The notes under the pieces: model-generated | Databases searched by the model: none | Seen by the model: only the letters and a program-made list of their open reading frames with translations | Told to the model about the DNA's origin: nothing | Origin: a virus | Taxonomy: Duplodnaviria > Heunggongvirae > Uroviricota > Caudoviricetes | DNA length: 64,000 nt | IMG/VR virus record: IMGVR_UViG_3300021963_000033 | Strand: one strand, 5' to 3' | Part shown: positions 21,246 to 38,787 of the stretch, piece after piece | How positions within the stretch are numbered: position 1 is the stretch's first letter | Layout of the letters: each line of letters opens with the position of its first letter | Program-made: the position numbers and the translations under genes

Positions 21246-21666
21246 TTTTATGCACTAATTGCAACGCAACAGCTGCTTCGTGGAACATCTGCTTGGTAAT
21301 ATCCCAGTTGAATGTGTCCTCGCGATCGGGATGGTAACTTACCACCTTCGAGATACCACGTTGGATGATGCTCTTGGCGCATTCGTTGCACGGGAGCAGT
21401 GGGACATACAGTGTGCATCCCTCAACACTCATCGGTGAATTGTCCAGCGCATTACGTTCAGCGTGCGCTACAAACAGATGCTTGGTAGGACGGTCTTCGT
21501 ATCGTTCTGCCTTATCTAATACACCACGAGGGAAACCGTTGTAACCAATGGAGATGATGCGATTGCGGTCATCTACAATGACACACCCTACCTTGGTGCT
21601 TGGGTCATAAGACCACGTTGAGATGTGGTCTGCGAGTTCCATGAATCGCTTGTCCCACTTATTCAT
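21235..21666 (-). CDS. cd: dCMP deaminase
   Basis: HAERNAL and PCNECAKSI zinc-binding motifs of cytidine/deoxycytidylate deaminases. Confidence 0.7.
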   Translation of the reverse strand: MNKWDKRFMELADHISTWSYDPSTKVGCVIVDDRNRIISIGYNGFPRGVLDKAERYEDRPTKHLFVAHAERNALDNSPMSVEGCTLYVPLLPCNECAKSIIQRGISKVVSYHPDREDTFNWDITKQMFHEAAVALQLVHKNEV

Positions 21667-22101
21667 AGGTTACTACCATCTTCACCTTCGTCTCGGTTGC
21701 CGTTACAATACGGTTGCGCAAACTTGACGAACTGTAGTCATGCTTCCTAGAAAGAAACTTTACTTGAAGGTCTAAACCATATCCAGTATAATCTGTACGG
21801 TGAAAATAGTCATCACCGAGGAATCGAACATCCCAATCATATCCAGTCAACAGGTTCAGTAGATCTGCTTCTGTGTCATATGGAATTATCTGATCAACAT
21901 ATCTACATGCATTGACCTGAACATAACGTTCAAACAAATTCTGCACAGGTTTGTTCTTCTCGGGACGGTCAAGAGTAGGGTCAGACTGCAGTGCTACTAC
22001 AAGTCGATCACAATACTCTTTTGCTTCACATAGCGCCAAAACATGACCTGCATGAAACAGGTCAAAACAACTGGCAATAATACCTACGCGTTCTTCAGTC
22101 A
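21659..22101 (-). CDS. cytidylyltransferase-like nucleotidyltransferase (TagD/RfaE-type)
   Basis: GIIASCFDLFHAGH matches the (H/T)xGH motif. Start reassigned to ATG 22101 with a GAAGG SD. Confidence 0.55.
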
Positions 22102-22307
22102 TATTCAATACCTTCATCTTGTTTGCGACCCATGTAGTGATCATCGCTTACGCAATGAAACTGTGCCTGGATTGGACTGTTGATAATAGTGCGAGTGACA
22201 TCACCTGCGAACTGTTCACACTGCTCTTTGCTGGCAGTCTCGTAAACATCCTTGGCGATAAACTCGCCTTCAGCAGTGAACAGATATACAATTAACCAAA
22301 AACTCAT
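22095..22307 (-). CDS. hypothetical protein
   Basis: AGGAG SD. Confidence 0.45.
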   Translation of the reverse strand: MSFWLIVYLFTAEGEFIAKDVYETASKEQCEQFAGDVTRTIINSPIQAQFHCVSDDHYMGRKQDEGIEYD

Positions 22308-22917: not shown

Positions 22918-23103
22918 TTAATTCGCCCAGCAGACTGAATGTTCAATTAATTTTACGGTGCTACCATCGTCAGTGCGCACCGCCACCTGCTGCCACTCTT
23001 GAGTGGAATCGTCAGTCATACTGACATATGCACCAATAACAAGACCATGCTCGCCATTTTCACCATACCTATAACCCATTACCTTATCACCGACCTCAAA
23101 CAT
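22918..23103 (-). CDS. hypothetical protein
   Basis: 61-aa ORF. Confidence 0.4.
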   Translation of the reverse strand: MFEVGDKVMGYRYGENGEHGLVIGAYVSMTDDSTQEWQQVAVRTDDGSTVKLIEHSVCWAN

Positions 23104-23126: not shown

Positions 23127-23648
23127 TTAATTTTTAAATTGCGATAAACACTCATCATAAGATTCCCGCATTCCTCCTACTTGGAAGAATATTCTTTGCG
23201 ATTTGTTATCTGGTAACCCATGCACGATTGATGTATTTATCAATGTCGCTGCATTAGCATAATCGTAGTTACAGATCTCGACCTCATTTTCATACCAGAC
23301 GATAGGAGCATGAAATGTTACCAGGGGAATTGATATCACAGCAGTTCTAGTGTCAGTGTGTTGCGGAAGTCTACCCTCCACGAAAGACACCTGACTCCAA
23401 TGGTATACATGATTCGGATCACTATACGGAGATTCGGGGACAAATAGGTCGCTAATCTTCTTGAAGAGTTGGTGTTCCCTGTAGTCTTCAGTTGCATCTC
23501 GGAGAAAATATTGAGAGTATTGTTTAATCGTATGACCCTGGACTACGTAATGATATGCCTGCGACTGATAGTTGTGCGATAGAAAATTGAAAAATCTCCA
23601 ATCAGTAGTGTCTAGCACCAATTCTAGTGGTTTGTAATACGGATACAT
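23127..23648 (-). CDS. cupin/2OG-oxygenase-like protein
   Basis: LPQHTDTRTAV gives an HxD motif; the fold assignment is tentative. Confidence 0.4.
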   Translation of the reverse strand: MYPYYKPLELVLDTTDWRFFNFLSHNYQSQAYHYVVQGHTIKQYSQYFLRDATEDYREHQLFKKISDLFVPESPYSDPNHVYHWSQVSFVEGRLPQHTDTRTAVISIPLVTFHAPIVWYENEVEICNYDYANAATLINTSIVHGLPDNKSQRIFFQVGGMRESYDECLSQFKN

Positions 23649-23649
23649 G

Positions 23650-24285
23650 CTAGTATATTCTCATTTTTGTAATCAATTTTTTCATCATCTCGTGCTCTGC
23701 TTTAACATTCAACACCAGCATGGTGCAGTTATCAACATACGAGAACAAGGAATGTGCTTTGGTGGTGTTCATAAAATATGCAACCCCTTCTCGCAATTCT
23801 ATAACCTTGCCATCAAATACCCACGTCATATGTTGTGAATGAAAATTATAGAAAGGAACAACTATTCTAAATGTATCATTAGGAAGTCTCCACTCGTGGT
23901 CCCTATGCGGAGGAAAGAACCCACCCTTATCCAACCGCAGAAAATGTGAGCGACCCAAGTCTTCCCCGAAAAAATTTAGTAATTCATTTATTTCGGGTAT
24001 CTCGAGCGACAAAGGTGTGCGAACCTTAAACTCCGAATCGCGATGCATTATGCCAGTATCTCTCCAATATTCTGACAAACTCTCGAGATCTGGAGTGCCT
24101 GAGTATCCTCCATCTAAACTGGTCATCGATAATCCGTAGCGATTGTACCCGTGCTTGTATGTGTTGTATTGCTTCCATTCTGGGTGTTCAAGAATAAGAT
24201 TTTTGTAGTTTTCCGCATTGAAAGACGGAAATCCCAGTTCAATCACATCACCATATGAGACTACAAATTCAGTCAATGGGTTCAT
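23650..24285 (-). CDS. aspartyl/asparaginyl beta-hydroxylase-like cupin oxygenase
   Basis: FFPPHRDHEW...FHSQHM gives a His/Asp/His triad. AGGAA SD. Confidence 0.45.
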   Translation of the reverse strand: MNPLTEFVVSYGDVIELGFPSFNAENYKNLILEHPEWKQYNTYKHGYNRYGLSMTSLDGGYSGTPDLESLSEYWRDTGIMHRDSEFKVRTPLSLEIPEINELLNFFGEDLGRSHFLRLDKGGFFPPHRDHEWRLPNDTFRIVVPFYNFHSQHMTWVFDGKVIELREGVAYFMNTTKAHSLFSYVDNCTMLVLNVKAEHEMMKKLITKMRIY

Positions 24286-24954
24286 TTAATTAGTTCCTGG
24301 ATCTGTTTTGCCGAGTTGATCGAAAGCCCACTGTCTTTCCCTACAGTGATAGCACTTACTGCATCTACCATATTTTTGCTGCGTGCAAGTGTGCGATATC
24401 TCGAGCAATCTTTCTGTGCCATGCATAAAATGCAAATCAATCGTGTGCGATTTCATCAATTCATTGAACGGCATGCCCAAATATTCCGGAAAGGGATTTG
24501 TATCTACTCTATACGGTTTTTCGTTTGGAGAAAGTACCAACTCGGATGTTTCTCTATTGTCTGCCATGTAAACAAACAGTTTACCATCCGCTGCATAGTC
24601 TTTGAATACTGCACGAACGCTCTCTTGAATTTGCTGCGAGTGGTGAAGTTCTTGGACGTTCTCTGCACCAAAAATCGTAGGCGCGGGTAAGTTTATACTC
24701 AGCATCTCGTTTATGGCGGCGACTATACCAGGAGAGTGAACCTCTGCGCCATCTGTCTTGGGCACCGTAAAGATATACTTAATTTCATCGATACTGCGCC
24801 CCTTCTTAATCAATTCGGAACAAATCATATACAATAGAATAGAACTGTCTGCTCCACTACTCAACATAATAGCAAGATCACGGTTTTCCGGTAGAGGCAA
24901 AACAAATGAGCGTCTATCTTCTGGTGGTCCACAGGTAAATGAAGTACTTGTCAT
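24286..24954 (-). CDS. QueC-like PP-loop ATPase (7-cyano-7-deazaguanine synthase family)
   Basis: SGADS PP-loop after a beta-strand (LAIMLSSGADSS). C-terminal C-x7-C-x2-C-x2-C (CTQQKYGRCSKCYHC) matches the QueC zinc site. Length 222 aa; AGGAG SD. Confidence 0.6.
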   Translation of the reverse strand: MTSTSFTCGPPEDRRSFVLPLPENRDLAIMLSSGADSSILLYMICSELIKKGRSIDEIKYIFTVPKTDGAEVHSPGIVAAINEMLSINLPAPTIFGAENVQELHHSQQIQESVRAVFKDYAADGKLFVYMADNRETSELVLSPNEKPYRVDTNPFPEYLGMPFNELMKSHTIDLHFMHGTERLLEISHTCTQQKYGRCSKCYHCRERQWAFDQLGKTDPGTN

Positions 24955-25772
24955 CTGTTTGCTCCTAGTAATTGCGTCGAGAGATTTACCAAGTTCGGAT
25001 AGAAAGTTGTAAACACTTCTCTCACCTCGTCGGCGTTTACAATTTGGTCGTATGGGTCTAGAGGTAGTTGTTTTTCATTAAAGACTCCGTATGCGAGTTT
25101 TTTCTCAGACTCATCTAAGTGCGCTGCCATCGAAGTCAATTCATCATATTCGACGACAATGTGACTACCGACAATATTAGTCATGATTTTTTTGTTATGT
25201 TCTTCCAAAAGATAACGACCGATGATCATGGATTTTAGTTCTGGGATATCAACACTTAAAGAATTGGAGTTTTTTCCGCTTCTGAAAATCATTGTTTTCT
25301 TGGAAAAGTAAGTGCTGAGAATCTTGTGCTCGAAATTGCGATTGACATATACAAATTTAAAATCCAGTTTCTTCAGAAGTTCTAAACTAGCAGTAACTGA
25401 AAGAAAGGTAAGTCTGTCATCTAAGAATACGCGACATGTCATTGGTTGTGCTGGATCTGCTCGCTGTATCTTTTCTATCCAGTCTTGACCTATCGCGGGG
25501 AGCATTTCAACATTTCTACTACTCGACATTTTACCGTTGCTATCAGTCATCATCTCGAATGATAGTTTATTATTTTCGTCGATTTCGATATTGAAGAAGT
25601 ACGCAGAATTGAATGAGAAGAAATCCTCTAGCGGTACTCCGCCATCAAACTTTTTGCCGATCGAATAGTTAAGCAGGGATTCGGTGAGTTGTGTTCCAGA
25701 TCTCGGAACACCCAGAACACAGTATCTATGATGCGATAGATTCCATGGGAGCGGATCGGACAACTTTATCAT
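24951..25772 (-). CDS. sulfotransferase family protein
   Basis: VLGVPRSGTQL matches the 5'-PSB-like P-loop, with a downstream RN..E motif. AAGGAAAA SD. Confidence 0.5.
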   Translation of the reverse strand: MIKLSDPLPWNLSHHRYCVLGVPRSGTQLTESLLNYSIGKKFDGGVPLEDFFSFNSAYFFNIEIDENNKLSFEMMTDSNGKMSSSRNVEMLPAIGQDWIEKIQRADPAQPMTCRVFLDDRLTFLSVTASLELLKKLDFKFVYVNRNFEHKILSTYFSKKTMIFRSGKNSNSLSVDIPELKSMIIGRYLLEEHNKKIMTNIVGSHIVVEYDELTSMAAHLDESEKKLAYGVFNEKQLPLDPYDQIVNADEVREVFTTFYPNLVNLSTQLLGANR

Positions 25773-25784
25773 TATGTTTTTTCC

Positions 25785-27401
25785 TTATGGTGCAACATAG
25801 TCTAACTTTTTCTTTTTGTAATTTTCGATAAAGTCAACTTTTTTATGCATCGGGGCGCGAACGCCTCCCAGTTGTCTAAATGACTTCATCATATCTTCGT
25901 CAGTATATCCACATACATACCAATCATCCATTCTCCAATGATCCACCCCAAAATCTAGATAAGAATCTTGCGCCCAGAAATTTTTGATGACCCATAGTAC
26001 AGCATCTTTTTCCGACATGCCCATGTTGTTGCGCCATCTAGTAAACAAAACTGATGGTGTCAGGTGCCGCATATACAATCGTATCTGATTTTTCAACTCA
26101 GGTTCAATTTGATTACTCTGGAATATGGGTACTAGATCTGGATGATCATCTGTCAATTGCTCTCCCTCGACCAAAGTAAATCCTTGTTTTTCATATTGAC
26201 TAGACAATTTACTTTGTGGATTATTTGCCAGCGTCTCGCTAGGAATAACCAAGGGATGTATCATTACATTATTGGTTTTCCAATGTTCCTTGCACCAGTT
26301 TAGAGTTTCGCTCAATGTTTCTTCTGTCTCATGCTGCAACCCTGCGATAAGACTTATTGTGCCTCTGTAATACCCATTATGCTCTAGACAGTATGCCTTA
26401 GAATCTAGAATTGCCTGTTGAATTTTGGCAGGTTCCATCCCTTTACCAATGGACTTGGCGCTAGGGCGATGAAATGATTCTATACCATAAAACTGCGAAG
26501 AAAAATTCATTCTTGATAAATGTTCAATATCTTCTGGGCGAGTATGTAACAGGTCGGCGCGAATATAACCTCCAAATAGAGGTTTAAAAGAAAACTTTTC
26601 AACCTCGTCTGCGTACTTGATTATCTTGTCAGTATAATCGTTGAAGGTTTCGTCGGCGATAGAATATCTGTATAGACCCCAATTGTCATAGTTTCTCACA
26701 AGATTGTCGTGAAAATCTTGTGCGTCGCGAGTATGGTCTTTTTTTACTCCAAGCACAGGGTACGTGCAAAATCCACATTTAAATCGGCAACCCCTGGAGG
26801 TTTCTATAGTTGTGTGTTCAAATGGTTGCATGAAATCTCGCTTTTCATAATCAACCGACAAATTGAGCATAGGAAAGGCGGGATAGTGTTTAACAGCGTC
26901 GACAGTTCTTCTGGTGTCACCTTCTTTGTTAATGACCTCCTCTGTCCACTTAGCAGTACCCTTTAAAATCTCAAGCATGGCATGTTCACCATATCCCGTG
27001 ACCATGTAATCAGCAGGTATTAAATGTATATTGTGGAATTGGGTGGACCCAGTAATGATAGTAACATCTGGATAAGTTTGTTTCAACCAAGAAAAGCAGA
27101 GATACAATATCTCTGTGTTCATTCTAAACAACGCACCCAATCCGACAAACTTGAACGTGGGTGTCATTCTTGAGCGAATTAACTCTTGAAATTCGCGCAC
27201 TGTCCAAGAAGGCGCGAAGTCAACAACCTCGACGTCTAGACCGTTTTGACGCAAGAATGATGCAATTCTATGTGCACCGCCATTCCGACGAACAGAACTA
27301 TAACTAATCGACGAGTCCTGCCTTCTCACTCCACTTTTATCAGTAGAAGGCGCTTCATCTAGATTAATCATACCACCAAAGATAATACCATCTAATGCCA
27401 T
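25785..27401 (-). CDS. B12-binding radical SAM protein (class B radical SAM)
   Basis: N-terminal cobalamin-binding-like domain. CRFKCGFC is a CxxxCxxC radical SAM motif. Length 538 aa. Confidence 0.65.
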   Translation of the reverse strand: MALDGIIFGGMINLDEAPSTDKSGVRRQDSSISYSSVRRNGGAHRIASFLRQNGLDVEVVDFAPSWTVREFQELIRSRMTPTFKFVGLGALFRMNTEILYLCFSWLKQTYPDVTIITGSTQFHNIHLIPADYMVTGYGEHAMLEILKGTAKWTEEVINKEGDTRRTVDAVKHYPAFPMLNLSVDYEKRDFMQPFEHTTIETSRGCRFKCGFCTYPVLGVKKDHTRDAQDFHDNLVRNYDNWGLYRYSIADETFNDYTDKIIKYADEVEKFSFKPLFGGYIRADLLHTRPEDIEHLSRMNFSSQFYGIESFHRPSAKSIGKGMEPAKIQQAILDSKAYCLEHNGYYRGTISLIAGLQHETEETLSETLNWCKEHWKTNNVMIHPLVIPSETLANNPQSKLSSQYEKQGFTLVEGEQLTDDHPDLVPIFQSNQIEPELKNQIRLYMRHLTPSVLFTRWRNNMGMSEKDAVLWVIKNFWAQDSYLDFGVDHWRMDDWYVCGYTDEDMMKSFRQLGGVRAPMHKKVDFIENYKKKKLDYVAP

Positions 27402-28267
27402 TAATCAATTACCTTTTTTGCATTTATTTCTGCCATTGATAATTGTCTATGTGGTTCATTGGTTATCTCCAATGCATCACCATATCCTTTACAGAATCTA
27501 CATGCATTTATGTTTATTTTTTCGCTGCTAATTGCCTCATGATAGTTTTCGTTAAACTGATCATTAATCGGTATACCATCCAGTTCCTTTAAGTCATATG
27601 GTAAAGGAACACCGATTGCTTTGTAGTATCCAGGACGATGCATACTTACAGCACACCGATAGTATTTTCCATCCATGAACGTGCCGCAATAGGTTTTCCC
27701 AGAACAAGAGGTATATACTGCTTGTGCGGTTTCTTCATCCAGTTCTTCAAATTGATCCAGCACACGAAACTCCTCTCCCCATGCCAATACTGAATGTGCT
27801 TCCTTGGACATTTCCTCTTGTTTCCAAACTCCAATACTTTTTGGATGGGACGGAACATTTTGTAAGTTCCAACGTTGTCCTCTTCTATCTAGATAGTCAA
27901 AAATCTTGTCGTAGTTTATTCCTGCATTTTCATACTTACTGAAAGTAACGATGTCACAATTGTCATAAAACTCATCTGGCATTGTCATTAGTTTCAATCC
28001 ATTCGTAAGAACGGCAGTAACATCACATAATTTGCTCTGCTTTGCGTATTTTAGATATTCTGTAATCTCTGGATTGAGCGTCGGTTCACCCCCAAGTAAA
28101 CGCAGGACACCAACATGCATGTATTGCGAGAGATTGTCTACATCTCGCTTGAAACTTTCTAAGTCTGAAAATTCTTCATCACGGTATGGAGATCCAGTGA
28201 TGCAGTTTGCGCATTTTAAATTGCAATGCCAACTTATGTAGTAATCAGTAGATCCGAGATTAATCAT
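27401..28267 (-). CDS. radical SAM protein with C-terminal Cys cluster (SPASM/twitch-like)
   Basis: CNLKCANC is a CxxxCxxC motif near the N-terminus. Extra C-terminal cysteines (CAVSM...CRFCKGYG). Confidence 0.6.
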   Translation of the reverse strand: MINLGSTDYYISWHCNLKCANCITGSPYRDEEFSDLESFKRDVDNLSQYMHVGVLRLLGGEPTLNPEITEYLKYAKQSKLCDVTAVLTNGLKLMTMPDEFYDNCDIVTFSKYENAGINYDKIFDYLDRRGQRWNLQNVPSHPKSIGVWKQEEMSKEAHSVLAWGEEFRVLDQFEELDEETAQAVYTSCSGKTYCGTFMDGKYYRCAVSMHRPGYYKAIGVPLPYDLKELDGIPINDQFNENYHEAISSEKININACRFCKGYGDALEITNEPHRQLSMAEINAKKVID

Positions 28268-28902
28268 TATTTTTCATTCCATTTAATTGATTCCAGAGTC
28301 TGCAAAAATGACTCTCGATGTGCCTCATTCCAAATAAGATAACCAATCCACTGTTTTACGCCGCGAATCTTAATTGGACCCGCAGATTTCATTGTCGGAT
28401 GAATTCTTACTCCAGGTTTGGCATAATGTTTACCGTTTTCCATAAAATATCCAGGATGTTTTTTTGGATCATTTATTTCAATGTATCTAGGATATAATCT
28501 AGAATTGTATTCATTTACTGAAGAGAATGCGCCAAACCGTCCAGTTTCCATACTTATATCTATGGCCAAATCATGAATAGCACCCTGCACTCGAGGCAGG
28601 GTGACTCCAGGGACTGTATAACTGCGAGAACTTAAATGTGTCATTTTTTCATCTATATCAGAAACTGAGAAACCACTGCCACATAAAATTCTATCATCTT
28701 TCTTATGTATTATATATCCATTACCACTACCATTATACCGTTTTTCTACATAAAGTAAATATAAAAACGAGGATTTATTTTCTTCCCATCCAACAGGACT
28801 CATGTTTTCTGCTCCTGGACGCGGATCTCCCAGAGATGCTTCACAAAATGGAAGAATCTTTTCTATGGGATAACTACTATCAATTTTCTCTAAATCAATC
28901 AT
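28267..28902 (-). CDS. hypothetical protein (possible acyltransferase-like)
   Basis: ORF translationally coupled into the operon; no firm motif. Confidence 0.45.
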   Translation of the reverse strand: MIDLEKIDSSYPIEKILPFCEASLGDPRPGAENMSPVGWEENKSSFLYLLYVEKRYNGSGNGYIIHKKDDRILCGSGFSVSDIDEKMTHLSSRSYTVPGVTLPRVQGAIHDLAIDISMETGRFGAFSSVNEYNSRLYPRYIEINDPKKHPGYFMENGKHYAKPGVRIHPTMKSAGPIKIRGVKQWIGYLIWNEAHRESFLQTLESIKWNEK

Positions 28903-29540
28903 AATATATTAAGACGAATTCGTGCTTCTTCTAGATCTTCATTAAACAAATCATCATAATTTTCTGCGAGTAAGAACTTAGCATTTGTCCCTCGCAGATA
29001 TGCATGTTTGACCATGGATAGATTTTTGTAAGAAAGACCATATTTTAATGAACCAAGCAAACATATCGCAAACCAACCAAGCGATTTTGTCTGTGCAAAT
29101 GAAAATGCTGCGAGACAAATTTCACCTGTATCATTTGCAGGATATCCTGTCAACGTGTGCCAAGTGTCATGTGTGTCGCGATACCTACGTGCCATCCAAT
29201 TATATGGATGTTTTGCTTCGATCCATTTGCTGTTGTTTGATTTTCTTCTGCTGAGTTTCAGTAAGATTTCTTGGTTCGGAAATAGTTTGTGACATTCTCT
29301 ACCAACAGACCCTTCTGGTCTCTCAGAAAGTGTCGGGAAATACTGCGAAATTTCCTCGGAGTTATACACAACCTCGCCGCCTGTTTTAGTCTTCATTAAC
29401 TGATCAAGACTCCAGCGCAATGATGGCGGATTTAATGCATGAAGGATCTCGAAAATGAAAATTGTGTTTGCAGGATTTTTGCGCAGTTTCTTAAATGCTT
29501 TGTATGCACGAAGATAGTCAATTTTGTATTCTAGTCTCAT
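28899..29540 (-). CDS. Coq4-like (HDxxH-x10-GE) family protein
   Basis: HDTWHTLTGYPANDTGE matches the Coq4 metal-binding signature. Confidence 0.35.
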   Translation of the reverse strand: MRLEYKIDYLRAYKAFKKLRKNPANTIFIFEILHALNPPSLRWSLDQLMKTKTGGEVVYNSEEISQYFPTLSERPEGSVGRECHKLFPNQEILLKLSRRKSNNSKWIEAKHPYNWMARRYRDTHDTWHTLTGYPANDTGEICLAAFSFAQTKSLGWFAICLLGSLKYGLSYKNLSMVKHAYLRGTNAKFLLAENYDDLFNEDLEEARIRLNIL

Positions 29541-30276
29541 CTACAATAACCTTCAATTCGCGAAGCACTTTTTTAATTTCAATCGGATTACTCAGGAAGG
29601 CATAGAAGTTTCCACTATCTTCCAAGTCGTAGACATATAGATGCTCATTAGTAAGAACATAGTTTATATCTGGATTATAGTATAATTTATATGATGCTAC
29701 GACATCCTCTGAACCGAGAAATGTCTCGTCGAAATCGAAGGAATTAATAACTTTCTTGGAATACAGTAACATTCTATTTTGCAGAAGATTTGCCGCCAAA
29801 AATTTACCGAGTTCGATTAGACGCAATCCATGCGAACCTTTTACGTTAGCGAACTTGTAGATATCTGCGCTGTTGAAGAACGCATTACCTGTGGTATTAG
29901 TTCCATTATAAGTCATCGCTCCATCGATCAAACCAATAACATCAACATCTGGATTTTCGTTCACAATTTTATCAAGTTTGATCAGTGAATCGGGAGCAAG
30001 ATAGTCATCTGCATCAACTTGCATGTAATAGTCATGCGAACGAGTTCGAAAAATCTCTAGAACAGAATTCTTCCCCTTCGCAGGTGTCCCGTTAGATTCA
30101 GTTACCAGAAACTCTAAATTGTATTCCTCGGCAACAGATCTCGCTTGCTCTACAAATGAAAAATCGAGAGTGTTGCATACCACAACCACATCACTGGTTT
30201 GAGGCAGAACACTCTCGATACAACGTTTTAATTTTTCAACATTCCTTGAAGTAAGGACTGCGACCAACAGATTCAT
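29518..30276 (-). CDS. family 2 glycosyltransferase (GT-A fold)
   Basis: N-terminal nucleotide-sugar binding (VVVVCNTLD) and a QVDADDY DxD motif. Confidence 0.6.
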   Translation of the reverse strand: MNLLVAVLTSRNVEKLKRCIESVLPQTSDVVVVCNTLDFSFVEQARSVAEEYNLEFLVTESNGTPAKGKNSVLEIFRTRSHDYYMQVDADDYLAPDSLIKLDKIVNENPDVDVIGLIDGAMTYNGTNTTGNAFFNSADIYKFANVKGSHGLRLIELGKFLAANLLQNRMLLYSKKVINSFDFDETFLGSEDVVASYKLYYNPDINYVLTNEHLYVYDLEDSGNFYAFLSNPIEIKKVLRELKVIVDETRIQN

Positions 30277-30590
30277 CCTACCAATGAACCTCCTGCCTTT
30301 TTTCTGATTTTTTCTACAGCGTCGCGAGTCTTCACATCCTTGGCAGATTTAGAACCATATTCCTTTGCTAAGGCAGAATTGGGATTGGCATCAGCGACGC
30401 GAGACATGACTTCCTTGAAGTGATCAGGAATCTTCCCGCCACCATCGGAACCAGGAGCATGTAAGAAGTTGATTTTCTTGTAGAGAATCTTAACTGTTCC
30501 ATCATCTGTGAGTTCTTTCATGTCATCATATGACATGGTCTGTTCCCACTCTTCACCTGTTTCTGTGTTTACAAAATCATATACTGGCAT
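30273..30590 (-). CDS. hypothetical protein
   Basis: ORF with a GAAAAGG SD; first gene of the coupled operon. Confidence 0.45.
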   Translation of the reverse strand: MPVYDFVNTETGEEWEQTMSYDDMKELTDDGTVKILYKKINFLHAPGSDGGGKIPDHFKEVMSRVADANPNSALAKEYGSKSAKDVKTRDAVEKIRKKAGGSLVG

Positions 30591-30628: not shown

Positions 30629-30703
30629 TGGTAGCCCCGAGCGGTTTCGATCCGCCTTCTCGTCAGTGAAAGTGACGTGTCCTAGCCAGTAGACGACGGG
30701 GCC
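30629..30703 (-). tRNA. tRNA-Glu(TTC)
   Basis: Cloverleaf with anticodon loop CTTTCAC, a GGTTCGAAACC-type T-arm and an encoded CCA. Confidence 0.75.
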
Positions 30704-30708
30704 ATAAA

Positions 30709-30945
30709 TTATAGACCAATAGCAGTGCGATAAGTCTCAAGAATCATATCTTCTTCTTGACGAACATGCGCTTCCTTCTTGCGGAGACGAATAATCTGGC
30801 GAGTTGCCTTAACATCGTAACCTTCGCTCTTTACATCAGCATACGCTTGTTTGCGATCTAACTTCTTATCGTCGATTTCTTTCTCGATATTTTCGATACG
30901 CTCAACCAACAAACGATACTTATCAATTGCAATAACATCAGTCAT
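30709..30945 (-). CDS. hypothetical coiled-coil protein
   Basis: ORF with an AAAGGAAG SD, directly downstream of tRNA-Cys. Confidence 0.5.
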   Translation of the reverse strand: MTDVIAIDKYRLLVERIENIEKEIDDKKLDRKQAYADVKSEGYDVKATRQIIRLRKKEAHVRQEEDMILETYRTAIGL

Positions 30946-30963
30946 AATATACTTCCTTTAGAA

Positions 30964-31041
30964 TGGAGGCACGAGTGGGATTCGAACCCACGGTTTTCAG
31001 GTTTTGCAGACCTGTGCGATGGACCACTCCGCCATCGTGCC
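30964..31041 (-). tRNA. tRNA-Cys(GCA)
   Basis: Anticodon loop CTGCAAA, T-arm GGTTCGAATCC, CCA encoded. Confidence 0.75.
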
Positions 31042-31046
31042 AAAAT

Positions 31047-31117
31047 TGGTACCAGCAGTAGGTAACGCTCCTACCAAACCAACCTTATGAGAGTCGGTCG
31101 GACACTTATCCTGCTGG
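31047..31117 (-). tRNA. atypical tRNA-like element (CAT anticodon loop)
   Basis: 7-9 bp acceptor helix plus encoded CCA, packed between two tRNAs. Loop CTCATAA on a 5-bp stem. D-region reduced and T-loop AGCGTTA non-canonical. Confidence 0.35.
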
Positions 31118-31119
31118 TA

Positions 31120-31195
31120 TGGTGCGAGTGACAGGGTTCGAACCTGTGACCTAACGATTATCGGTCGTTTGCTCTACCAACTGAGCTACACTCGC
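31120..31195 (-). tRNA. tRNA-Ile(GAT)
   Basis: Anticodon loop CCGATAA; canonical D- and T-arms. Confidence 0.75.
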
Positions 31196-31200
31196 AAATA

Positions 31201-31282
31201 TGGTGGGCACGGTGGGACTCGAACCCACAAAGTTTCCTAACGAATTTTAAGTCCGTCGCGTTTACCATTTCGCCACGTGCCC
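31201..31282 (-). tRNA. tRNA-Leu(TAA)
   Basis: Class II tRNA with a long variable arm; loop CTTAAAA. Confidence 0.7.
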
Positions 31283-31283
31283 A

Positions 31284-31359
31284 TGGGGTGATCGACGGGT
31301 ATCGAGCCCGCAACTCCGGATTCACAATCCAGCATGTATCCATTAACACCTCAACCACC
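31284..31359 (-). tRNA. tRNA-His(GTG)
   Basis: Loop TTGTGAA, an extra 5' G(-1) opposite C73, and a 3' end CACCCCA as in bacterial tRNA-His. Confidence 0.65.
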
Positions 31360-31375
31360 ATAAACTAATGCAGTG

Positions 31376-31420
31376 CCCATTACTGACGCATTACGCACCC
31401 TCGTCATGGGTTTTTGTTTT
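31376..31420 (+). terminator. plus-strand intrinsic-terminator-like hairpin
   Basis: CCCAT(TAC)TGACG...CGTCATGGG followed by TTTTTGTTTT on the plus strand. Confidence 0.35.
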
Positions 31421-31471
31421 GCTACGCTGGAAGATACCCTATCTCCCTTGGGCCACTTGACACTGCAACTT

Positions 31472-31558
31472 TGGCGGAAGGTGTGGGAGTCGAACCCACT
31501 CAACCATTTCTGGTTGACGCATTAGCAGTGCGTTGCATTACCGTCCTGCCCACCTTCC
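31472..31558 (-). tRNA. tRNA-Ser(GCT)
   Basis: Class II; loop CTGCTAA. Confidence 0.7.
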
Positions 31559-31564
31559 GTTATA

Positions 31565-32362
31565 TTACTTAACGTTTACGATACCCTTGAAGTCGTAAGG
31601 AACGATAATGGTAGAAACCTTACCTTCCTTAACTGCTTCCGCGATTGTCACAAGAGCAGTCGCTTCCATGTATTTAGTAGCACCAGCGTTGGCATTAAGA
31701 GCAGCAATACGTTCTGCTTCCAACTTCGCGGTACGAACCTCTACCAACTTCTGCTTCTCAGCATTTTGTGCCTGAACAAGTTGGTTAGCAGACGCTACGA
31801 TACTCGCAGCAGGTTTTACCTGACGAACAAGAACCTGCGAGATCGAGATAGAACCATCGAGTTTCTCAGAGGCAAGTTGCGCTACAATCTCTTGGCGAAC
31901 CAATTGCTCAATCTCAGCACGATTGTCTGCCATCTTCAATGACTCGTAACGACGAGCAACCTTGTAAGCAGCATTACGACCCAACTGACGAATGTAATTA
32001 TACATCAACAGTGTATCGCCTTCTTCGGTTTCAGCGTGGAAACCACGATTCTTTTCTACATAGATTTCAGCAGCACTAGTTGGATTGATCGAGTAGATTA
32101 CTGACATATCAAAGTCAGCAACAGTCGAGTTATCAGCAGCAAGTGGTGTCAAATCAGTTACATCAACCTGCACGTCCTTGGTAGGAAACGTCAAAACATC
32201 ACCGAAGATGGTTTGGTTCAGAGATCCTGGTTGTAGTTCGGTGGTTTCAATCTGCTTGTAAGCATCACGACGAACACCAACTTCACCAGTTTCAATACGA
32301 GTACAGGCAGCAGTGGTTGCCATCAGACCAGCGAGAAGAACGACTTTAGTAACACTTTTCAT
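31565..32362 (-). CDS. SPFH/band-7-like lipoprotein
   Basis: Start reassigned to MKSVTKVVLLAGLMATTAAC (lipobox) with an AAGGAA SD. The C-terminal Ala/Glu-rich helical region resembles SPFH proteins. Confidence 0.45.
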   Translation of the reverse strand: MKSVTKVVLLAGLMATTAACTRIETGEVGVRRDAYKQIETTELQPGSLNQTIFGDVLTFPTKDVQVDVTDLTPLAADNSTVADFDMSVIYSINPTSAAEIYVEKNRGFHAETEEGDTLLMYNYIRQLGRNAAYKVARRYESLKMADNRAEIEQLVRQEIVAQLASEKLDGSISISQVLVRQVKPAASIVASANQLVQAQNAEKQKLVEVRTAKLEAERIAALNANAGATKYMEATALVTIAEAVKEGKVSTIIVPYDFKGIVNVK

Positions 32363-32376
32363 AATAACTTTATTCC

Positions 32377-32553
32377 TTAGAAAATCAAAACGATTCCAGT
32401 AATAACGACCATCGTTAATACAGTACACACTATACTATAAGCAAGCAATTTAGTCAAGCTTATTTTTTCAGACTTATTCATTTTTCTGAAAGTATCAATG
32501 CCAACGATGAATCCAAACAGGATGACCATGAAGGCAACAATCATTTTACTCAT
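32377..32553 (-). CDS. small membrane protein (58 aa)
   Basis: AAGGAA SD; its stop overlaps the downstream RBS. Absent from the ORF track. Confidence 0.4.
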   Translation of the reverse strand: MSKMIVAFMVILFGFIVGIDTFRKMNKSEKISLTKLLAYSIVCTVLTMVVITGIVLIF

Positions 32554-32582
32554 AACAAATTCCTTAAAAATTGGTTAAAAAT

Positions 32583-32657
32583 TGGTGGATCCACTGGGAC
32601 TTGAACCCAGAATATGCGATTAAAAGTCGCGTGTGATACCTATTTCACCATGGATCC
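32583..32657 (-). tRNA. tRNA-Lys(TTT)
   Basis: Loop CTTTTAA; perfect acceptor GGATCCA/TGGATCC. Its 5' 18 nt are shared with the HEG stop region. Confidence 0.7.
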
Positions 32658-33218
32658 TGATAGATGATTCATAATACCATCTACAAACGTTTTTTTGTCA
32701 TCTAGTTTTTGATAATCAGACCATTTGACTCTAATTATCTCCCAACCAAGAGATTCAAGATATTCGTTTCTGCGAATATCACTTTTTACAACTCTTGGGT
32801 CTAGATGGTGTTGATCTCCATCAATCTCTAAATCTATCTTAGCAGCAACAAATGCAAAATCTAACTGATATGGTCCAATTTGATATTGTTCGGCATATAC
32901 CAGATTATTTGAATCGAGAACTGCCTTCCAATATTCTTCAGCATATGACCTACCCTTGGAATAATGGTTAAGTTTATACGGCACCATGTGAGGATTTTCA
33001 CGAAGAAATTTAATACGACTTTCGCTGATTTTTTTCTTCGTTTCTTCTGTCATGGGTGGTCGTTTTTTATTCGCATCACTGCGTTTTTTTCTCGACTCTT
33101 CCGTTATTTCTGGGTTGGGTAAACCAAGTTCTTTCGCTTTGGTATACTGGTTTCTTGCTGTTTTGCCTCGTTTTGCTGCCATGGCAGCATACCACTTTTC
33201 GCTTTTAGGTTTACTCAT
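32640..33218 (-). CDS. homing endonuclease-like protein (DUF559/Vsr-like PD-(D/E)xK nuclease domain plus NUMOD-like N-terminus)
   Basis: C-terminal QLDFAF...IDLEIDGDQHH...R..E..GW.IIR is the DUF559 core. AAGGAG SD. The last 5 codons are encoded by the tRNA-Lys 5' end. Confidence 0.5.
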   Translation of the reverse strand: MSKPKSEKWYAAMAAKRGKTARNQYTKAKELGLPNPEITEESRKKRSDANKKRPPMTEETKKKISESRIKFLRENPHMVPYKLNHYSKGRSYAEEYWKAVLDSNNLVYAEQYQIGPYQLDFAFVAAKIDLEIDGDQHHLDPRVVKSDIRRNEYLESLGWEIIRVKWSDYQKLDDKKTFVDGIMNHLSGSMVK

Positions 33219-33260
33219 ACTAGTCTCCTTATACTAGTATTTATATTTTTAGAGCATTTA

Positions 33261-33298
33261 ACTTAACCTTGTTGCTCTACCTACTGAGCTAATCGTCC
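33261..33298 (-). pseudogene. tRNA 5'-half fragment (acceptor plus D-arm plus partial anticodon arm)
   Basis: GGACGATTAGCTCAGTAGGTAGAGCAACAAGG has a canonical D-arm but no 3' half. It abuts the HEG leader. Confidence 0.5.
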
Positions 33299-33303
33299 GA
33301 AAC

Positions 33304-33379
33304 TGGTAGACCCTGTTGGATTCGAACCAACGACCTGCGGATTAAGAGTCCGATGCTCTACCGACTGAGCTAAGGGTCC
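33304..33379 (-). tRNA. tRNA-Lys(CTT)
   Basis: Loop CTCTTAA; canonical arms. Confidence 0.7.
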
Positions 33380-33385
33380 ATAAAA

Positions 33386-33685
33386 TTATGGATGCTTCCA
33401 AACAACCTTACGTTGTGATTTTGCAATCCGCGTTTGTTCTTCGCTATTCTTATAGAAGTCAAACCAACTATCATACTGTTTCATCGCAGCTTCTTTAGCA
33501 AGTTCCAAGGTTGGAAACGTGTTCGAAGGATACCCACGATTTGCAGATGGATAGTGCTTTATAAGGTTCCAATTATCCATGAACGGCAAGAAACGATAGG
33601 TGCAGATCGCATACTCTGCGACAAACCCATCCTGCTCATTACCACGAACACGTACTTTCAAACCGTAAGGAACTTTCTCAAACAT
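33386..33685 (-). CDS. hypothetical protein
   Basis: Start reassigned to ATG 33685 with a GGAG SD. The ORF-track N-terminus overlaps tRNA-Met. Confidence 0.45.
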   Translation of the reverse strand: MFEKVPYGLKVRVRGNEQDGFVAEYAICTYRFLPFMDNWNLIKHYPSANRGYPSNTFPTLELAKEAAMKQYDSWFDFYKNSEEQTRIAKSQRKVVWKHP

Positions 33686-33709
33686 AATATATTCTCCATA
33701 ACAAAAAAC

Positions 33710-33785
33710 TGGTAGACGAGGAGGGACTCGAACCCCCAACCAAACCGTTATGAGCGGTCGGCTCTAACCATTGAGCTACTCGTCT
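33710..33785 (-). tRNA. tRNA-Met(CAT) (elongator or Ile2-type)
   Basis: Loop CTCATAA; canonical arms. Confidence 0.7.
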
Positions 33786-33790
33786 AAACT

Positions 33791-33967
33791 TTAATACATC
33801 GGTTCTTCCGGATCGACGTCTTCAACTGAGTAGGTAGGATACCATTCAGGAGTTTCACGTTCCAAGAATTTGATCATCTCTTTCGCCTTTTCTTCGGTCG
33901 AGTAGATACCAACCATGATCGAGTGATCTCCACCAGGAGATTCATTGTTCACAACATAAACTTGCAT
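33791..33967 (-). CDS. small protein, paralog pair member 1
   Basis: AAAGGAAGG SD. Shares VGIYSTEEKAK with the neighbouring LGVYASEDEAR. Confidence 0.45.
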   Translation of the reverse strand: MQVYVVNNESPGGDHSIMVGIYSTEEKAKEMIKFLERETPEWYPTYSVEDVDPEEPMY

Positions 33968-33987
33968 AATCAACCTTCCTTTAAACT

Positions 33988-34188
33988 TTAACCGATGTAG
34001 ATCCGATACTCCTCGGAATCTACAGGAGCACCGATCGTCCGACGTTCGATGTAGTACGCATCGAGGAACCGATCACCGTCACGAGTATACACACCATGGG
34101 CATTCCGTGCTTCATCTTCCGACGCATACACGCCAAGGAGCACAGAACCTGCCATATCGAACTCACCTAACAACGCAAAAACTTCCAT
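33988..34188 (-). CDS. small protein, paralog pair member 2
   Basis: AAAGGAAA SD, downstream of promoter 34216-34244. Confidence 0.45.
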   Translation of the reverse strand: MEVFALLGEFDMAGSVLLGVYASEDEARNAHGVYTRDGDRFLDAYYIERRTIGAPVDSEEYRIYIG

Positions 34189-34215
34189 AACGATTTCCTT
34201 TCAAACTATAATATC

Positions 34216-34244
34216 ACTATACCTCGAAATGTAGAAATTGTCAA
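34216..34244 (-). promoter_or_regulatory. early promoter, family member
   Basis: GGGCTTGACA-17-TATAGT followed by GATATTATAGTTTGAAAGGAAA. Confidence 0.6.
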
Positions 34245-34246
34245 GC

Positions 34247-34285
34247 CCTAAAATAAAAAAAGTGCCAAGTTTTTTTCCTTGACAC
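34247..34285 (-). terminator. bidirectional rho-independent terminator
   Basis: GTGCCAAG-TTTTTTT-CCTTGACAC hairpin flanked by A- and T-tracts, between the tRNA sub-array and the next promoter. Confidence 0.55.
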
Positions 34286-34294
34286 TTTTTATTA

Positions 34295-34384
<90 letters not shown>

Positions 34385-34389
34385 TAATC

Positions 34390-34465
34390 TGGATGCCCTA
34401 CCACGACTCGAACGTGGAACCTTCTGAATCAAAATCAGACGTGCTGCCAATTGCACCATAGGGCA
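34390..34465 (-). tRNA. tRNA-Gln(TTG)
   Basis: Loop TTTTGAT; T-arm CCACGTTCGAGTCGTGG. Confidence 0.7.
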
Positions 34466-34466
34466 C

Positions 34467-34541
34467 TGGTACAGGATGACGGGATTGAACCGCCGACCGC
34501 CTCGGTGTAAACGAGATGCTCTACCGCTGAGCTAATCCTGC
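34467..34541 (-). tRNA. tRNA-Val(TAC)
   Basis: Loop TTTACAC; canonical D-arm GCTCAGCGGTAGAGC. Confidence 0.7.
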
Positions 34542-34544
34542 AAA

Positions 34545-34994
34545 TTAATGTCTTACCACGTGATCAGCAGCATGTGTTGCCGCGAAAGACTCTGGTTTGA
34601 TTTTAGCATCAAGACCCGTAGTTCCCTTAACATACCCCAATGCTTCTTTAACAGCAATGCTGGATTTATGCCTAGGATCGGGATTGATGTCAAGATGGAT
34701 TTCTAGATGTCGACTACCAACCACATCAACAATTGCTGTTGCTGCTTCAATGGCAAATCCTGCTTCGGTGATCAGACGTTGCCGTAAGTTACCGAAGTCG
34801 CGCATCTCTACGTTTCTAGAGAATATTTTACCACCATGTTTTGAGTCCATGTGAAGAATAATAACAGTGGAATACTTAGCATACCACTCACCACTACGCT
34901 TCTTGAATCTTATTGAATCGGCACCGATATAAACAGATGACGTTTCACTTGAATTTAGAATTGCTTCTCTTGCTTCATCATACATAAAAATCAT
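34545..34994 (-). CDS. hypothetical protein
   Basis: ORF immediately downstream of the tRNAs; start uncertain. Confidence 0.4.
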   Translation of the reverse strand: MIFMYDEAREAILNSSETSSVYIGADSIRFKKRSGEWYAKYSTVIILHMDSKHGGKIFSRNVEMRDFGNLRQRLITEAGFAIEAATAIVDVVGSRHLEIHLDINPDPRHKSSIAVKEALGYVKGTTGLDAKIKPESFAATHAADHVVRH

Positions 34995-35071
34995 CCATTT
35001 ATAAATAAGTTTGTGTGGTTCACGATGTTGACGCATCCAACCACTCTAACGCTTTCAAGGAGCATCAGCAC

Positions 35072-35569: not shown

Positions 35570-35607
35570 GTTCTCAAGGTTTTGGAGACCTGCGGATTAC
35601 CATCTTC
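35543..35607 (-). tRNA. atypical/truncated tRNA-like element (CCA anticodon loop, Trp-like)
   Basis: Canonical T-arm CTCAGTTCGATTCTGAG, acceptor 3' strand plus CCA, loop CTCCAAA, but only about 10 nt in place of a D-arm. Its T-arm overlaps the GIY-YIG stop. Confidence 0.35.
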
Positions 35608-35630
35608 CCCCACCGACGCAAACTTAGAAA

Positions 35631-35706
35631 TGGTCTAGGTGACTGGACTCGAACCAACAATCCCCTCGCCCCAAACGAGGTGCCTTACCACTTAGGCCAC
35701 ACCTAG
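35631..35706 (-). tRNA. tRNA-Pro(TGG)
   Basis: Loop TTTGGGG with G37. Confidence 0.7.
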
Positions 35707-35716
35707 ATATCTTTAA

Positions 35717-35911: not shown

Positions 35912-35932
35912 ATTTACTTCCTTTGTTAAAAA

Positions 35933-36014: not shown

Positions 36015-36015
36015 G

Positions 36016-36283: not shown

Positions 36284-36289
36284 TTAAAC

Positions 36290-38758: not shown

Positions 38759-38787
38759 ATTTTACCTTTCTTCCATTACATTCAAAC

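Follow-up and report, generated by a model that had tools for sequence, protein, structure and literature searches.

The stretch of DNA analysed here (the window; 64,000 nucleotides of the IMG/VR virus record IMGVR_UViG_3300021963_000033, Caudoviricetes) comes from an uncultured, T4-like aquatic phage and carries a compact group of enzyme genes, hereafter referred to as the island. According to the list of open reading frames (ORFs), the island is a minus-strand run of nine consecutive ORFs at 23127-30276, which is almost gap-free. These ORFs, lettered from I to A in the direction of transcription, and a tenth ORF (J) that adjoins them are as follows.

I, 29518-30276, minus strand: family 2 glycosyltransferase (GT2; GT-A), 252 aa, DADD motif
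H, 28899-29540, minus strand: Coq4-like protein, 213 aa, HDxxH-x11-E metal motif
G, 28267-28902, minus strand: GNAT-fold acyltransferase-like protein, 211 aa
F, 27401-28267, minus strand: radical S-adenosylmethionine (SAM) enzyme, 288 aa, CNLKCANC
E, 25785-27401, minus strand: class-B-like (B12-domain) radical SAM enzyme, 538 aa, CRFKCGFC
D, 24951-25772, minus strand: sulfotransferase-like P-loop protein, 273 aa, GVPRSGTQ
C, 24286-24954, minus strand: PP-loop ATP pyrophosphatase of the QueC/Cap9 fold with a C-terminal four-cysteine ribbon, 222 aa
B, 23650-24285, minus strand: predicted cupin (double-stranded beta-helix), probable Fe(II)/2-oxoglutarate (2OG) oxygenase, 211 aa
A, 23127-23648, minus strand: possible second small oxygenase/cupin, 173 aa, HTD...H...R
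J, 30273-30590, minus strand: 105 aa, PHROG 385 "transcriptional regulator" (1.2e-11)

Taken in transcription order, the junctions of the island comprise overlaps of 23, 4, 1, 1 and 4 nt, one abutment, and gaps of 12 and 1 nt. An earlier note, made by a model from the letters of the sequence, had described positions 23127-30590 as a coupled minus-strand operon of nine genes. The coordinates and the coupling of the nine genes were confirmed, and the motifs quoted in that note (SSGADS, C-x7-C-x2-C-x2-C, CRFKCGFC, CNLKCANC, GVPRSGTQ, HDTWH-x11-E and DADD) are all present in the translations. However, the range up to 30590 takes in the tenth ORF, J, which is a phage backbone gene outside the island, because in related phages it is found on either side of it (upstream in most relatives, downstream in the loci L012 and L025). 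A role of J as an island member or a precursor peptide could be ruled out on the same grounds.

The G+C content of the island is slightly lower (0.37-0.41) than that across the window (~0.43). Scans for promoter and terminator consensus sequences within the block yielded nothing above shuffled expectation, and no T4-type late promoter (TATAAATA) could be found within or just upstream of the island. Seven of the nine island proteins are acidic (pI 4.7-6.1), including a soluble GT2 (I) with a pI of 4.7 and a net charge of -12, while G and H have values of 7.8 and 9.3, respectively. No transmembrane segment was predicted in any of the nine. Such acidic, membrane-free proteins would be slightly more in keeping with the chemistry of soluble small molecules than with enzymes that act directly on DNA or in the membrane.

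A conserved core with exchangeable accessory genes

Loci related to the island were collected from IMG/VR, metagenome-assembled genomes (MAGs) in GTDB, and the European Nucleotide Archive (ENA), and nine architectures, including that of the window, could be distinguished. They are given below in the direction of transcription, with a slash setting J apart, rSAM and a number standing for other radical SAM genes, x for a further ORF and SDR for a short-chain dehydrogenase/reductase.

Window: J / I H G F E D C B A
L027: I H G F E x C
L029: J / I H G F C B
L003 type: J / I H rSAM334 G E C B A
L005 type: J / I H G E C B D
L008: J / I H G E C B
L026: J / I H G desaturase rSAM430 C B D
L025: I H G C E D rSAM405 ... 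J
L012: I cupin H G E x C SDR cupin D rSAM403 / J

In all nine architectures, I, H, G and C are accompanied by at least one radical SAM gene in a near-constant order, the exception being L025, in which C precedes E. The gene that follows G encodes a radical SAM enzyme except in L025 (C next) and L026 (desaturase next). The overlapping starts and stops of the core are kept although the architectures differ by up to 60% in protein sequence. On the other hand, F, D, A, the desaturase, the SDR, an unrelated ORF of 151 aa, and other cupins and radical SAM genes come and go between the architectures. F was found only in the window, L027 and L029 and is replaced elsewhere by unrelated radical SAM genes, the island radical SAMs being of at least four unrelated types; E is absent from the island in L026 and L029, D is present in five of the nine architectures, and A is limited to the window and the L003-type phages. 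The island is thus a mosaic of a fixed core and swappable accessories, and not the one fixed operon that had been proposed, a pattern that fits a core scaffold with tailoring steps. One of these loci, L012 (RGCF01000036.1), was deposited as part of a Bacteroidetes MAG; it holds the island, 15 tRNA genes and T4-like neighbours, and is almost certainly a misbinned phage contig.

A deeper linkage was revealed by scanning IMG/VR with a profile of the C family, which detected 133 viral stretches that were dereplicated to 40 groups. A B-type oxygenase gene adjoins C in 17 of these groups, with a median gap of 2 bp, and lies within 3 kb of C in 19 when an iterative search is used. E-type radical SAM genes are located at up to 3 kb from C in six groups, a number that rises to eight when the whole of the fetched flanks is considered. 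The pair formed by the PP-loop protein and the Fe/2OG-type oxygenase (C-B) is the deepest linkage of the island. Moreover, in the 344-kb genome of RsoM2USA, a cultured jumbo phage of Ralstonia, gp134 and gp135 are an overlapping C-B pair in which both products are annotated as "hypothetical" (L102, 8950-10445), and this pair therefore offers a direct experimental handle. RsoM2USA was the sole match to C among GenBank phages; neither near-identical nor protein-level relatives of the island or of E could be found there.

Homologues of C that are 44-47% identical also occur on contigs binned as Bdellovibrio MAGs (L013, 1350-3185; L014, 748-5745). In L014, the C homologue is found together with an E-like B12 radical SAM gene, a PhyH-like dioxygenase, a polytopic membrane protein and a protein read as di-iron, and in L013 it adjoins a class-V aminotransferase-like gene. 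For the latter pair, the possibility that C acts as a thiolase together with a cysteine desulfurase was considered and rejected, as by our own reading the aminotransferase-like neighbour is without the catalytic cysteine. In one other lineage, tandem C paralogues are situated between nrdA and nrdB. Radical SAM/SPASM-type genes recur beside C. Delta9-type (stearoyl-CoA/DesC-type) desaturase genes were detected inside or beside the module in four lineages (L026, L078, L080 and L049), including a copy inside the island of L026 (6987-7736) and two copies directly after the C gene in L078 (9608-11130). In the T4-like locus L080 (8584-11512), the translations point to an ATP-grasp-like enzyme, another PP-loop protein of an unrelated kind and a Rieske-type oxygenase a few genes away from the QueC-fold gene, the desaturase and a possible GNAT gene.

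The E family comprises 969 clusters, many of them on T4-like contigs of 150-177 kb, and is essentially confined to uncultured phages. E occurs without the other island genes in L007, L019 and L020, being placed among unrelated genes in the last two; in L007 (5409-9521), a relative without the island, the E-like gene stands alone ~1.4 kb downstream of a phage SAM synthetase gene, whose product of 364 aa was read from the translation as MetK-like. In other phages, the islands around E homologues contain NDP-sugar (nucleoside diphosphate sugar) epimerases/dehydratases, UDP-glucose dehydrogenase, carbamoyltransferase, GT2 and aminotransferase genes. A further context is provided by L017, a syntenic T4-like relative (JGI 3300021425; E 43% identical, RNase H 62%), in which the E homologue overlaps the dCMP deaminase gene and is followed by a run of genes for UDP-glucose dehydrogenase, Tet_JBP, GATase, GNAT, amino acid:DNA transferase (AADT; PF18724) and P-loop nucleotide kinase 3. 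This run, which together with the dCMP deaminase gene spans 9545-15182, is likely a cassette for the hypermodification of DNA pyrimidines (cytosine or thymine) within a T4-like backbone.

Enzyme families of the island

Profile scores were judged against the curated Pfam and NCBIfam (TIGR) family cut-offs. Fold search placed C in the QueC/Cap9 fold with Cap9 as the top structural match. Like the other members of the PF06508 superfamily with which it was compared (QueC, Cap9 and QatC), C is a single-domain protein of ~220 aa with an N-terminal PP-loop and a C-terminal four-cysteine ribbon. In a 2026 survey of PF06508, canonical QueC was characterized by the motifs SGGxDS, C-x8-C-x2-C-x2-C, YxQxHxxE, VPxRN and YPDC and by linkage to queD/queE, and the chemistry of the QueC family was described as ATP-dependent amide formation from a carboxylate (PMC13329287). 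C differs from these proteins, to which it is ~14% identical, in several respects. Its PP-loop is SSGADS, with S32, G34, D36 and S37 invariant in the family and SGGIDS or SGGLDS in distant members. The zinc motif, C190-x7-C198-x2-C201-x2-C204, is invariant in the family alignment; the earlier note had called it the exact QueC motif, whereas it is off by one residue from the canonical C-x8-C spacing (PMC13329287). None of the substrate motifs YxQxHxxE, VPxRN and YPDC could be found in C or in the consensus of the family alignment.

Both profile scores of C fall below the cut-offs, with 21.2 bits vs. 22 for Pfam QueC (PF06508), where only residues 161-214 (the last 54-residue region) were matched, and 13.1 bits vs. 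150.3 for TIGR00364. No queD, queE, folE or tgt/DpdA gene was detected among the cluster proteins, the larger window ORFs scanned with Pfam, or the related loci. The conserved partner of C is instead the Fe/2OG-type oxygenase, and the partners of Cap9 and QatC (Cap10 and a cGAS/DncV-like nucleotidyltransferase, or CD-NTase, in the one case and QatA/B/D in the other) are absent from the island. A HMMER scan of 1.84 billion representative proteins with the C family recovered 551 members at E<=1e-10 and 1499 at E<=1e-3; by our own reading, the latter number is too small to include the canonical QueC family, the match list itself carrying no names. On sequence grounds, C founds a separate family of the QueC/Cap9 fold, which occurs mostly in phages and comprises ~550 representative clusters, because the canonical zinc spacing and substrate motifs, the linkage to que genes and scores above the cut-offs are missing and the number of matches is small. 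The QueC-like amidotransferase of the earlier note thus stands with regard to the PP-loop and the fold, and not with regard to the other canonical signatures. An identity of C as a canonical QueC or preQ0 enzyme is ruled out by motifs, scores and context, and with FolE, QueD, QueE and Tgt/DpdA absent, the view that the island is not the canonical preQ0/queuosine set was borne out. By analogy with its relatives, C would adenylate a carboxylate and form an amide, and ATP-dependent carboxylate activation followed by amide formation is probably a property that it shares with them.

The assignments of the putative oxygenases and the sulfotransferase are based on sub-threshold matches and motifs. 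B is matched in Pfam by Asp_Arg_Hydrox (E 0.0048, 17.2 bits vs. a cut-off of 22.6), and its matches in the PDB profile search were weak (E 0.15-1.7), all of them being Fe/2OG enzymes such as proline 3-hydroxylase (1e5r) and BesD. H127, D129 and H178, which make up the HxD...H triad, are invariant in 16 homologues with 22-72% identity, and B, which is conserved as a partner of C, is a probable Fe(II)/2OG oxygenase. For A, no significant profile match was obtained in any library (the sole match, in NCBIfam, has an E value of 0.039), and the translated motif HTD...H...R points to a possible second small oxygenase. The two cupin/2OG oxygenases that had been claimed are thus weakly supported. D shows sub-threshold similarity to Sulfotransfer_3 (17 bits vs. 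27) and Sulfotransfer_1 (16.1 vs. 22), with E about 0.007, and a PDB profile search gave no useful information. An alignment of five homologues shows GVPRSGTQ and YVNR-x7-S to be invariant, and by our own reading GVPRSGTQ and YVNRNFEHKILSTYF resemble the 5'-phosphosulfate-binding (5'-PSB) and 3'-phosphate-binding (3'-PB) motifs by which sulfotransferases bind 3'-phosphoadenosine 5'-phosphosulfate (PAPS). The proposed PAPS-type sulfotransferase is likewise weakly supported, with profile matches below threshold and a possible resemblance in motifs.

The GT2, Coq4-like, Radical_SAM and class-B-like assignments of the earlier note hold by profile search. I matches Pfam Glycos_transf_2 with 34.1 bits vs. 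a cut-off of 23.3, with DADD as its DxD motif. H matches Pfam Coq4 (5.9e-16, 58.9 bits vs. 22.9) and the cyanobacterial Coq4-like structures 6e12 (Alr8543, 5e-08) and 3msq in the PDB, and its metal motif consists of HDTWH, 11 residues and E; no other quinone-pathway genes were seen when the cluster proteins and the larger ORFs of the window were scanned. G, which had been listed as an unknown protein, was found to have a GNAT fold by fold search, whereas Pfam, NCBIfam and PHROG profiles gave no match and the PDB profile search was uninformative. From its fold, G is predicted to be a GNAT acyltransferase-like protein, which may use acyl-CoA. A relationship to the DNA-modifying GNAT protein Mom of phage Mu was rejected (hhalign probability 0.2%), as was a role as an obligatory partner of E in the manner of a split Elp3, since no G homologue adjoins E where E stands alone.

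Both radical SAM enzymes score far under the cut-offs of the named families that they match. F matches Pfam Radical_SAM (38.3 bits) and Fer4_12 (26 bits) and has, besides CNLKCANC, five further C-terminal cysteines (C198-x5-C204-x11-C216 ... C259-x2-C262), with no match to Pfam SPASM. Its best named matches (viperin-like, MoaA, mycofactocin and QueE) cover the N-terminal core and are far under the cut-offs: 22.2 bits vs. 260.1 for QueE TIGR03963 in the N-terminal core alone, and 34.1 bits vs. 180 for viperin-like NF038283 in residues 8-110 alone, the PADLOC pVip match (3.6e-10) being confined to residues 9-110. The resemblance to QueE that had been noted for F (22 bits vs. 260) is therefore a generic one, and an identity of F as QueE or viperin was rejected because the match is restricted to the generic N-terminal radical SAM core. 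E has a CxxxCxxC core (CRFKCGFC) that is apparently preceded, as in class B radical SAM enzymes, by an N-terminal Rossmann-like domain, and it matches Pfam Radical_SAM (PF04055) with 34 bits vs. 29.5. In contrast to the known members of this class, E lies under every family-specific cut-off. The B12-binding domain (PF02310) is sub-threshold in the window protein (19.4 bits vs. 32.1), several homologues carrying a precomputed PF02310 match, and no profile matches a C-terminal region of 170 aa. Twenty NCBIfam matches, many of them to B12-binding radical SAM families, are all far under the cut-off; the best is a lipid/ladderane-type B12/radical SAM family (2e-16, 59.7 bits vs. 360), and the hopanoid enzymes HpnJ and HpnR are also among them.

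A putative tailoring pathway and competing explanations

It has been reported that aquatic T4-like myophages carry hypervariable islands in which radical SAM cassettes are accompanied by genes for RfaE, UDP-glucose dehydrogenase, glycosyltransferases and Asp/Asn beta-hydroxylase, and these islands have been interpreted as serving O-chain modification (PMC7029224). As in those of pelagimyophages and cyanomyophages, a T4-like backbone here bears a non-syntenic island of mosaic behaviour, and radical SAM cassettes, glycosyltransferases, rfaE-like and other sugar genes, Asp/Asn beta-hydroxylase-like proteins and desaturases are common to both (PMC7029224). The present island differs in its fixed GT2-Coq4-GNAT-PP-loop core and in its position, which is after the tRNA array in the replication/nucleotide-metabolism half and not in the tail-fibre "host recognition cluster". 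The island belongs to these known hypervariable enzyme islands, and what is new is this variant with several orphan families at its centre; no description of this gene combination was found in the literature searched, as judged by title or abstract. Phage pyrimidine hypermodification cassettes are likewise multi-enzyme, mosaic and close to nucleotide-metabolism genes, with GNAT and radical SAM tailoring, and a relative of E lies beside one of them in L017. However, their defining Tet_JBP, kinase, AADT/aGPT-Pplase and hydroxymethylase are absent from the scans of the window. Bacterial NDP-sugar/O-antigen clusters (with WbpG/PseA-type amidotransferases, GNATs, cupins and sulfotransferases) have a similar mix of enzyme classes that ends in a GT2, and a PP-loop amidotransferase is an established step of sugar tailoring in them, whereas the island is without dehydratase, aminotransferase, flippase and polymerase and adds a Coq4-like protein and a class-B radical SAM enzyme. 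Overall, the interpretation in the earlier note is partly supported: the coupled multi-enzyme cluster stands, as do the distinctions from the preQ0/queuosine set and from known thymidine-hypermodification cassettes, and the single fixed operon does not.

The explanation favoured here, tentatively, is that the island encodes a modular, soluble, phage-borne tailoring pathway acting on a small-molecule intermediate, in which the GT2 would transfer a decorated sugar or glycoconjugate. A tailoring pathway is suggested because the nine genes are coupled, belong to established families or folds and share a core that is kept in nine architectures, and a sugar because the GT2 is invariant, genes for RfaE-II/TagD-like and phosphomannomutase (PMM)-like proteins lie nearby, and sugar genes are found in other E islands. 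The order of steps, the substrates and the acceptor are those that we infer from the gene layout, folds and families, core, accessories and C-B linkage reported above. In such a scheme, C would adenylate a carboxylate and convert it to an amide, B would hydroxylate the same scaffold, with A as an accessory, and G would N-acylate an amine. E, by its class-B type, and/or F might carry out a radical C-methylation or rearrangement, H a metal-dependent step such as a decarboxylation, and D the optional addition of sulfate, before I would hand the product to an acceptor, for which phage DNA, a virion protein and the host envelope are candidates. The earlier note had proposed a glycosylated small molecule bearing sulfate and/or methyl groups, or else the modification of a nucleobase or a surface glycan; this is plausible though unproven, and sulfation would be at best an accessory step.

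Several points weigh against this explanation. Every catalytic role in it would follow from fold or family by analogy, and those of B, A and D from matches below threshold and motifs. Neither an NDP-sugar 4,6-dehydratase, nor an aminotransferase, nor a nucleotidyltransferase is present within the nine genes of the island. Moreover, the C-B pair is found in many phages without a nearby glycosyltransferase, so the deepest module is not centred on glycans, and E may belong to another pathway, since it is alone in several phages and missing from two variants. The role of the Coq4-like protein is also left unexplained by the scheme.

Direct hypermodification of phage DNA is unlikely, though the most probable of the rivals. 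A pyrimidine or purine would here carry a side chain that is amidated, hydroxylated and glycosylated, and the genome would thereby be shielded from nucleases of the host. Following the logic of Elongator, a radical SAM enzyme and the GNAT would carboxymethylate the base, C would amidate the product, and the oxygenase and the GT2 would hydroxylate and glycosylate it. Such a role is in line with the nucleobase substrates of QueC and of its relative Cap9 from CBASS (cyclic oligonucleotide-based antiphage signalling systems), with the action of the nearest radical SAM cores of F (viperin and MoaA) on nucleoside triphosphates, with the tandem C paralogues between nrdA and nrdB, and with a mosaic, fast-changing gene content, as would fit an arms-race trait; C itself, however, is without deazaguanine-binding motifs, and G is not similar to Mu Mom. 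The island is 1.5 kb from the dCMP deaminase gene, and in L017 the E homologue overlaps that gene and precedes a bona fide hypermodification set, but this closeness to cd may merely reflect shared T4-like synteny. None of Tet_JBP, hydroxymethylase, 5-HMUDK-type kinase, AADT and aGPT-Pplase appeared in the Pfam scans of the larger ORFs, nor did BLAST with the L017 proteins as queries reveal a homologue of the marker enzymes when all ORFs of >=60 aa in the window were searched. The statement in the earlier note that the island is not a known thymidine-hypermodification cassette therefore agrees with the absence of Tet_JBP, AADT and kinase homologues. In addition, an ordinary supply of dTMP is expected because the window has ThyX and dCMP deaminase, and acidity, which seven of the nine proteins show, is unusual in enzymes that bind DNA (weak evidence). 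A new nucleobase chemistry that dispenses with TET/JBP, hydroxymethylase and DNA kinase is quite unlikely: here the radical SAM and GNAT-fold enzymes would install a carboxyalkyl group, C would amidate it, the oxygenase would hydroxylate it and the GT-A enzyme would glycosylate it, with sulfate being optional. If true, the PP-loop/oxygenase pair would mark a whole class of undetected phage base modifications, including one in RsoM2USA.

Another possibility, judged improbable, is that two or three independent modules, e.g., GT2-Coq4-GNAT, the class-B radical SAM enzyme and PP-loop-oxygenase, have come to lie side by side in a hyperplastic region, with one of them perhaps modifying tRNA. This is suggested by the solitary E genes, by the C-B pair that stands alone in many phages, and by the free gain and loss of F, D, A, the desaturase and the 151-aa ORF, but the order I-H-G-(radical SAM)-C and its overlaps are kept in nine architectures, and genes of the C and E types are repeatedly found together, both in lineages unrelated to each other and in a bacterium. 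A tRNA role is suggested by the position of the island, which comes immediately after the tRNA array in all full-core relatives that were inspected for tRNA genes; this adjacency may be inherited synteny, since it is limited to a single clade of close relatives. Remodelling of a membrane lipid or isoprenoid (aminolipid, glycolipid, hopanoid or quinone type) appears more doubtful still. In this case, G would be an N-acyltransferase, the oxygenases LpxO/OlsC-type hydroxylases, the radical SAM enzyme a C-methylase, H a polyprenyl-binding enzyme and the GT2 an enzyme of glycolipid synthesis. The Coq4 family belongs to quinone pathways, and the only Pfam match of B is Asp_Arg_Hydrox, a family that includes the lipid hydroxylases LpxO and OlsC as well. 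Furthermore, the Bdellovibrio contig L014 joins C and an E-like radical SAM gene with a PhyH-like dioxygenase and a polytopic membrane protein. The best NCBIfam matches of E (the ladderane-type lipid family, HpnJ and HpnR) point in the same direction, yet all of them are far under the cut-offs, and neither a membrane segment in the nine window proteins nor an acyl carrier or acyl-activating gene in the island could be predicted. The Delta9-type desaturase within the L026 island and those near C in L078, L080 and L049 may be placed there by coincidence, since desaturases are known as stand-alone auxiliary genes of aquatic myophages (PMC7029224). The least probable explanation is post-translational modification of a phage or host protein or peptide, either of the kind seen in RiPPs (ribosomally synthesized and post-translationally modified peptides) or as hydroxylation, C-methylation, acylation or glycosylation of a virion protein, in which C, like Cap9 and QatC, would join a carboxylate to an amine of a protein. 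Class-B radical SAM enzymes, Asp/Asn hydroxylases, GNATs and GT2 enzymes each have peptide-modifying members, radical SAM/SPASM-type enzymes recur beside C, and Cap9 is its top structural match, although the Cap9 and QatC partners are absent. No precursor peptide travels with the island, J being a backbone gene and the 61-aa ORF at 22918-23103 being mostly absent, and neither a protease nor a leader-binding domain (RiPP recognition element, RRE) was found in the nine genes.

If the tentatively favoured tailoring pathway, or one of its rivals, creates a new modification of DNA, virion or envelope, it would represent new chemistry in the arms race between phage and host. It would also give a function to orphan families, namely the ~550-cluster QueC/Cap9-fold family, its oxygenase partner, the 969-cluster radical SAM family and the phage Coq4-like proteins. 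If it is ordinary sugar tailoring, the island still illustrates how a fixed core and exchangeable tailoring genes are put together in such regions.

Phage backbone and genes around the island

The backbone genes of the window encode RNase H, ribonucleotide reductase (NrdA/B), ThyX, a MazG-like protein, a Toprim-domain protein and dCMP deaminase. Annotation of a clamp-loader subunit, RegA and endonuclease VII is confined to a contig of the same phage (L001), in a stretch differing from the window. Identical proteins are encoded on metagenome contigs of the ENA samples ERZ27296343 and ERZ27296389, and the nearest relatives of NrdA are podovirus and pelagiphage proteins with 55-62% identity.

A tRNA array of 22 genes occupies the minus strand at 30629-39318, next to the island. 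Small ORFs and a DUF559/MTES_1575-type endonuclease-like gene (32640-33218) are scattered among the tRNA genes, and a gene for an N6/N4 DNA methyltransferase (38039-38758) also lies in the tRNA region, whereas HNH_3 and NUMOD3 homing-endonuclease-like ORFs are found elsewhere (1134-1859; 40787-41290). Just upstream of the island, genes were observed for a GapR-type DNA-binding protein (PF10073; 30709-30945) and for a Band_7/SPFH protein with a lipoprotein-like N-terminus (31565-32428). The GapR family is typical of Alphaproteobacteria, and the two genes may be a hint at the host group.

Downstream of the island, the segment 20685-22144 contains genes for a nucleotidyltransferase, dCMP deaminase and a PKHD/P4H-type Fe(II) dioxygenase (2OG-FeII_Oxy_3). 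The nucleotidyltransferase (161 aa, 21659-22144) is RfaE-II/TagD-like and lies near the island but outside it. The 61-aa ORF mentioned above, which is located between this segment and the island, is missing from most island variants. The PMM-like gene encodes a PMM/HAD-IIB protein (10988-11704), which is of eukaryotic type and adjoins an AhpC/TSA peroxiredoxin gene, the two together spanning 10988-12282. In the more distant part of the window, a 391-aa protein (53008-54183) is a fusion of Peptidase_M15 and Glyco_hydro_19 (chitinase-like) and is probably a two-domain cell-wall hydrolase. An 809-aa ORF (59351-61780) is without a family match; its residues 15-39 show 84-91% identity to a segment of a hypothetical protein that is found in ~50 Synechococcus/Prochlorococcus myophages.

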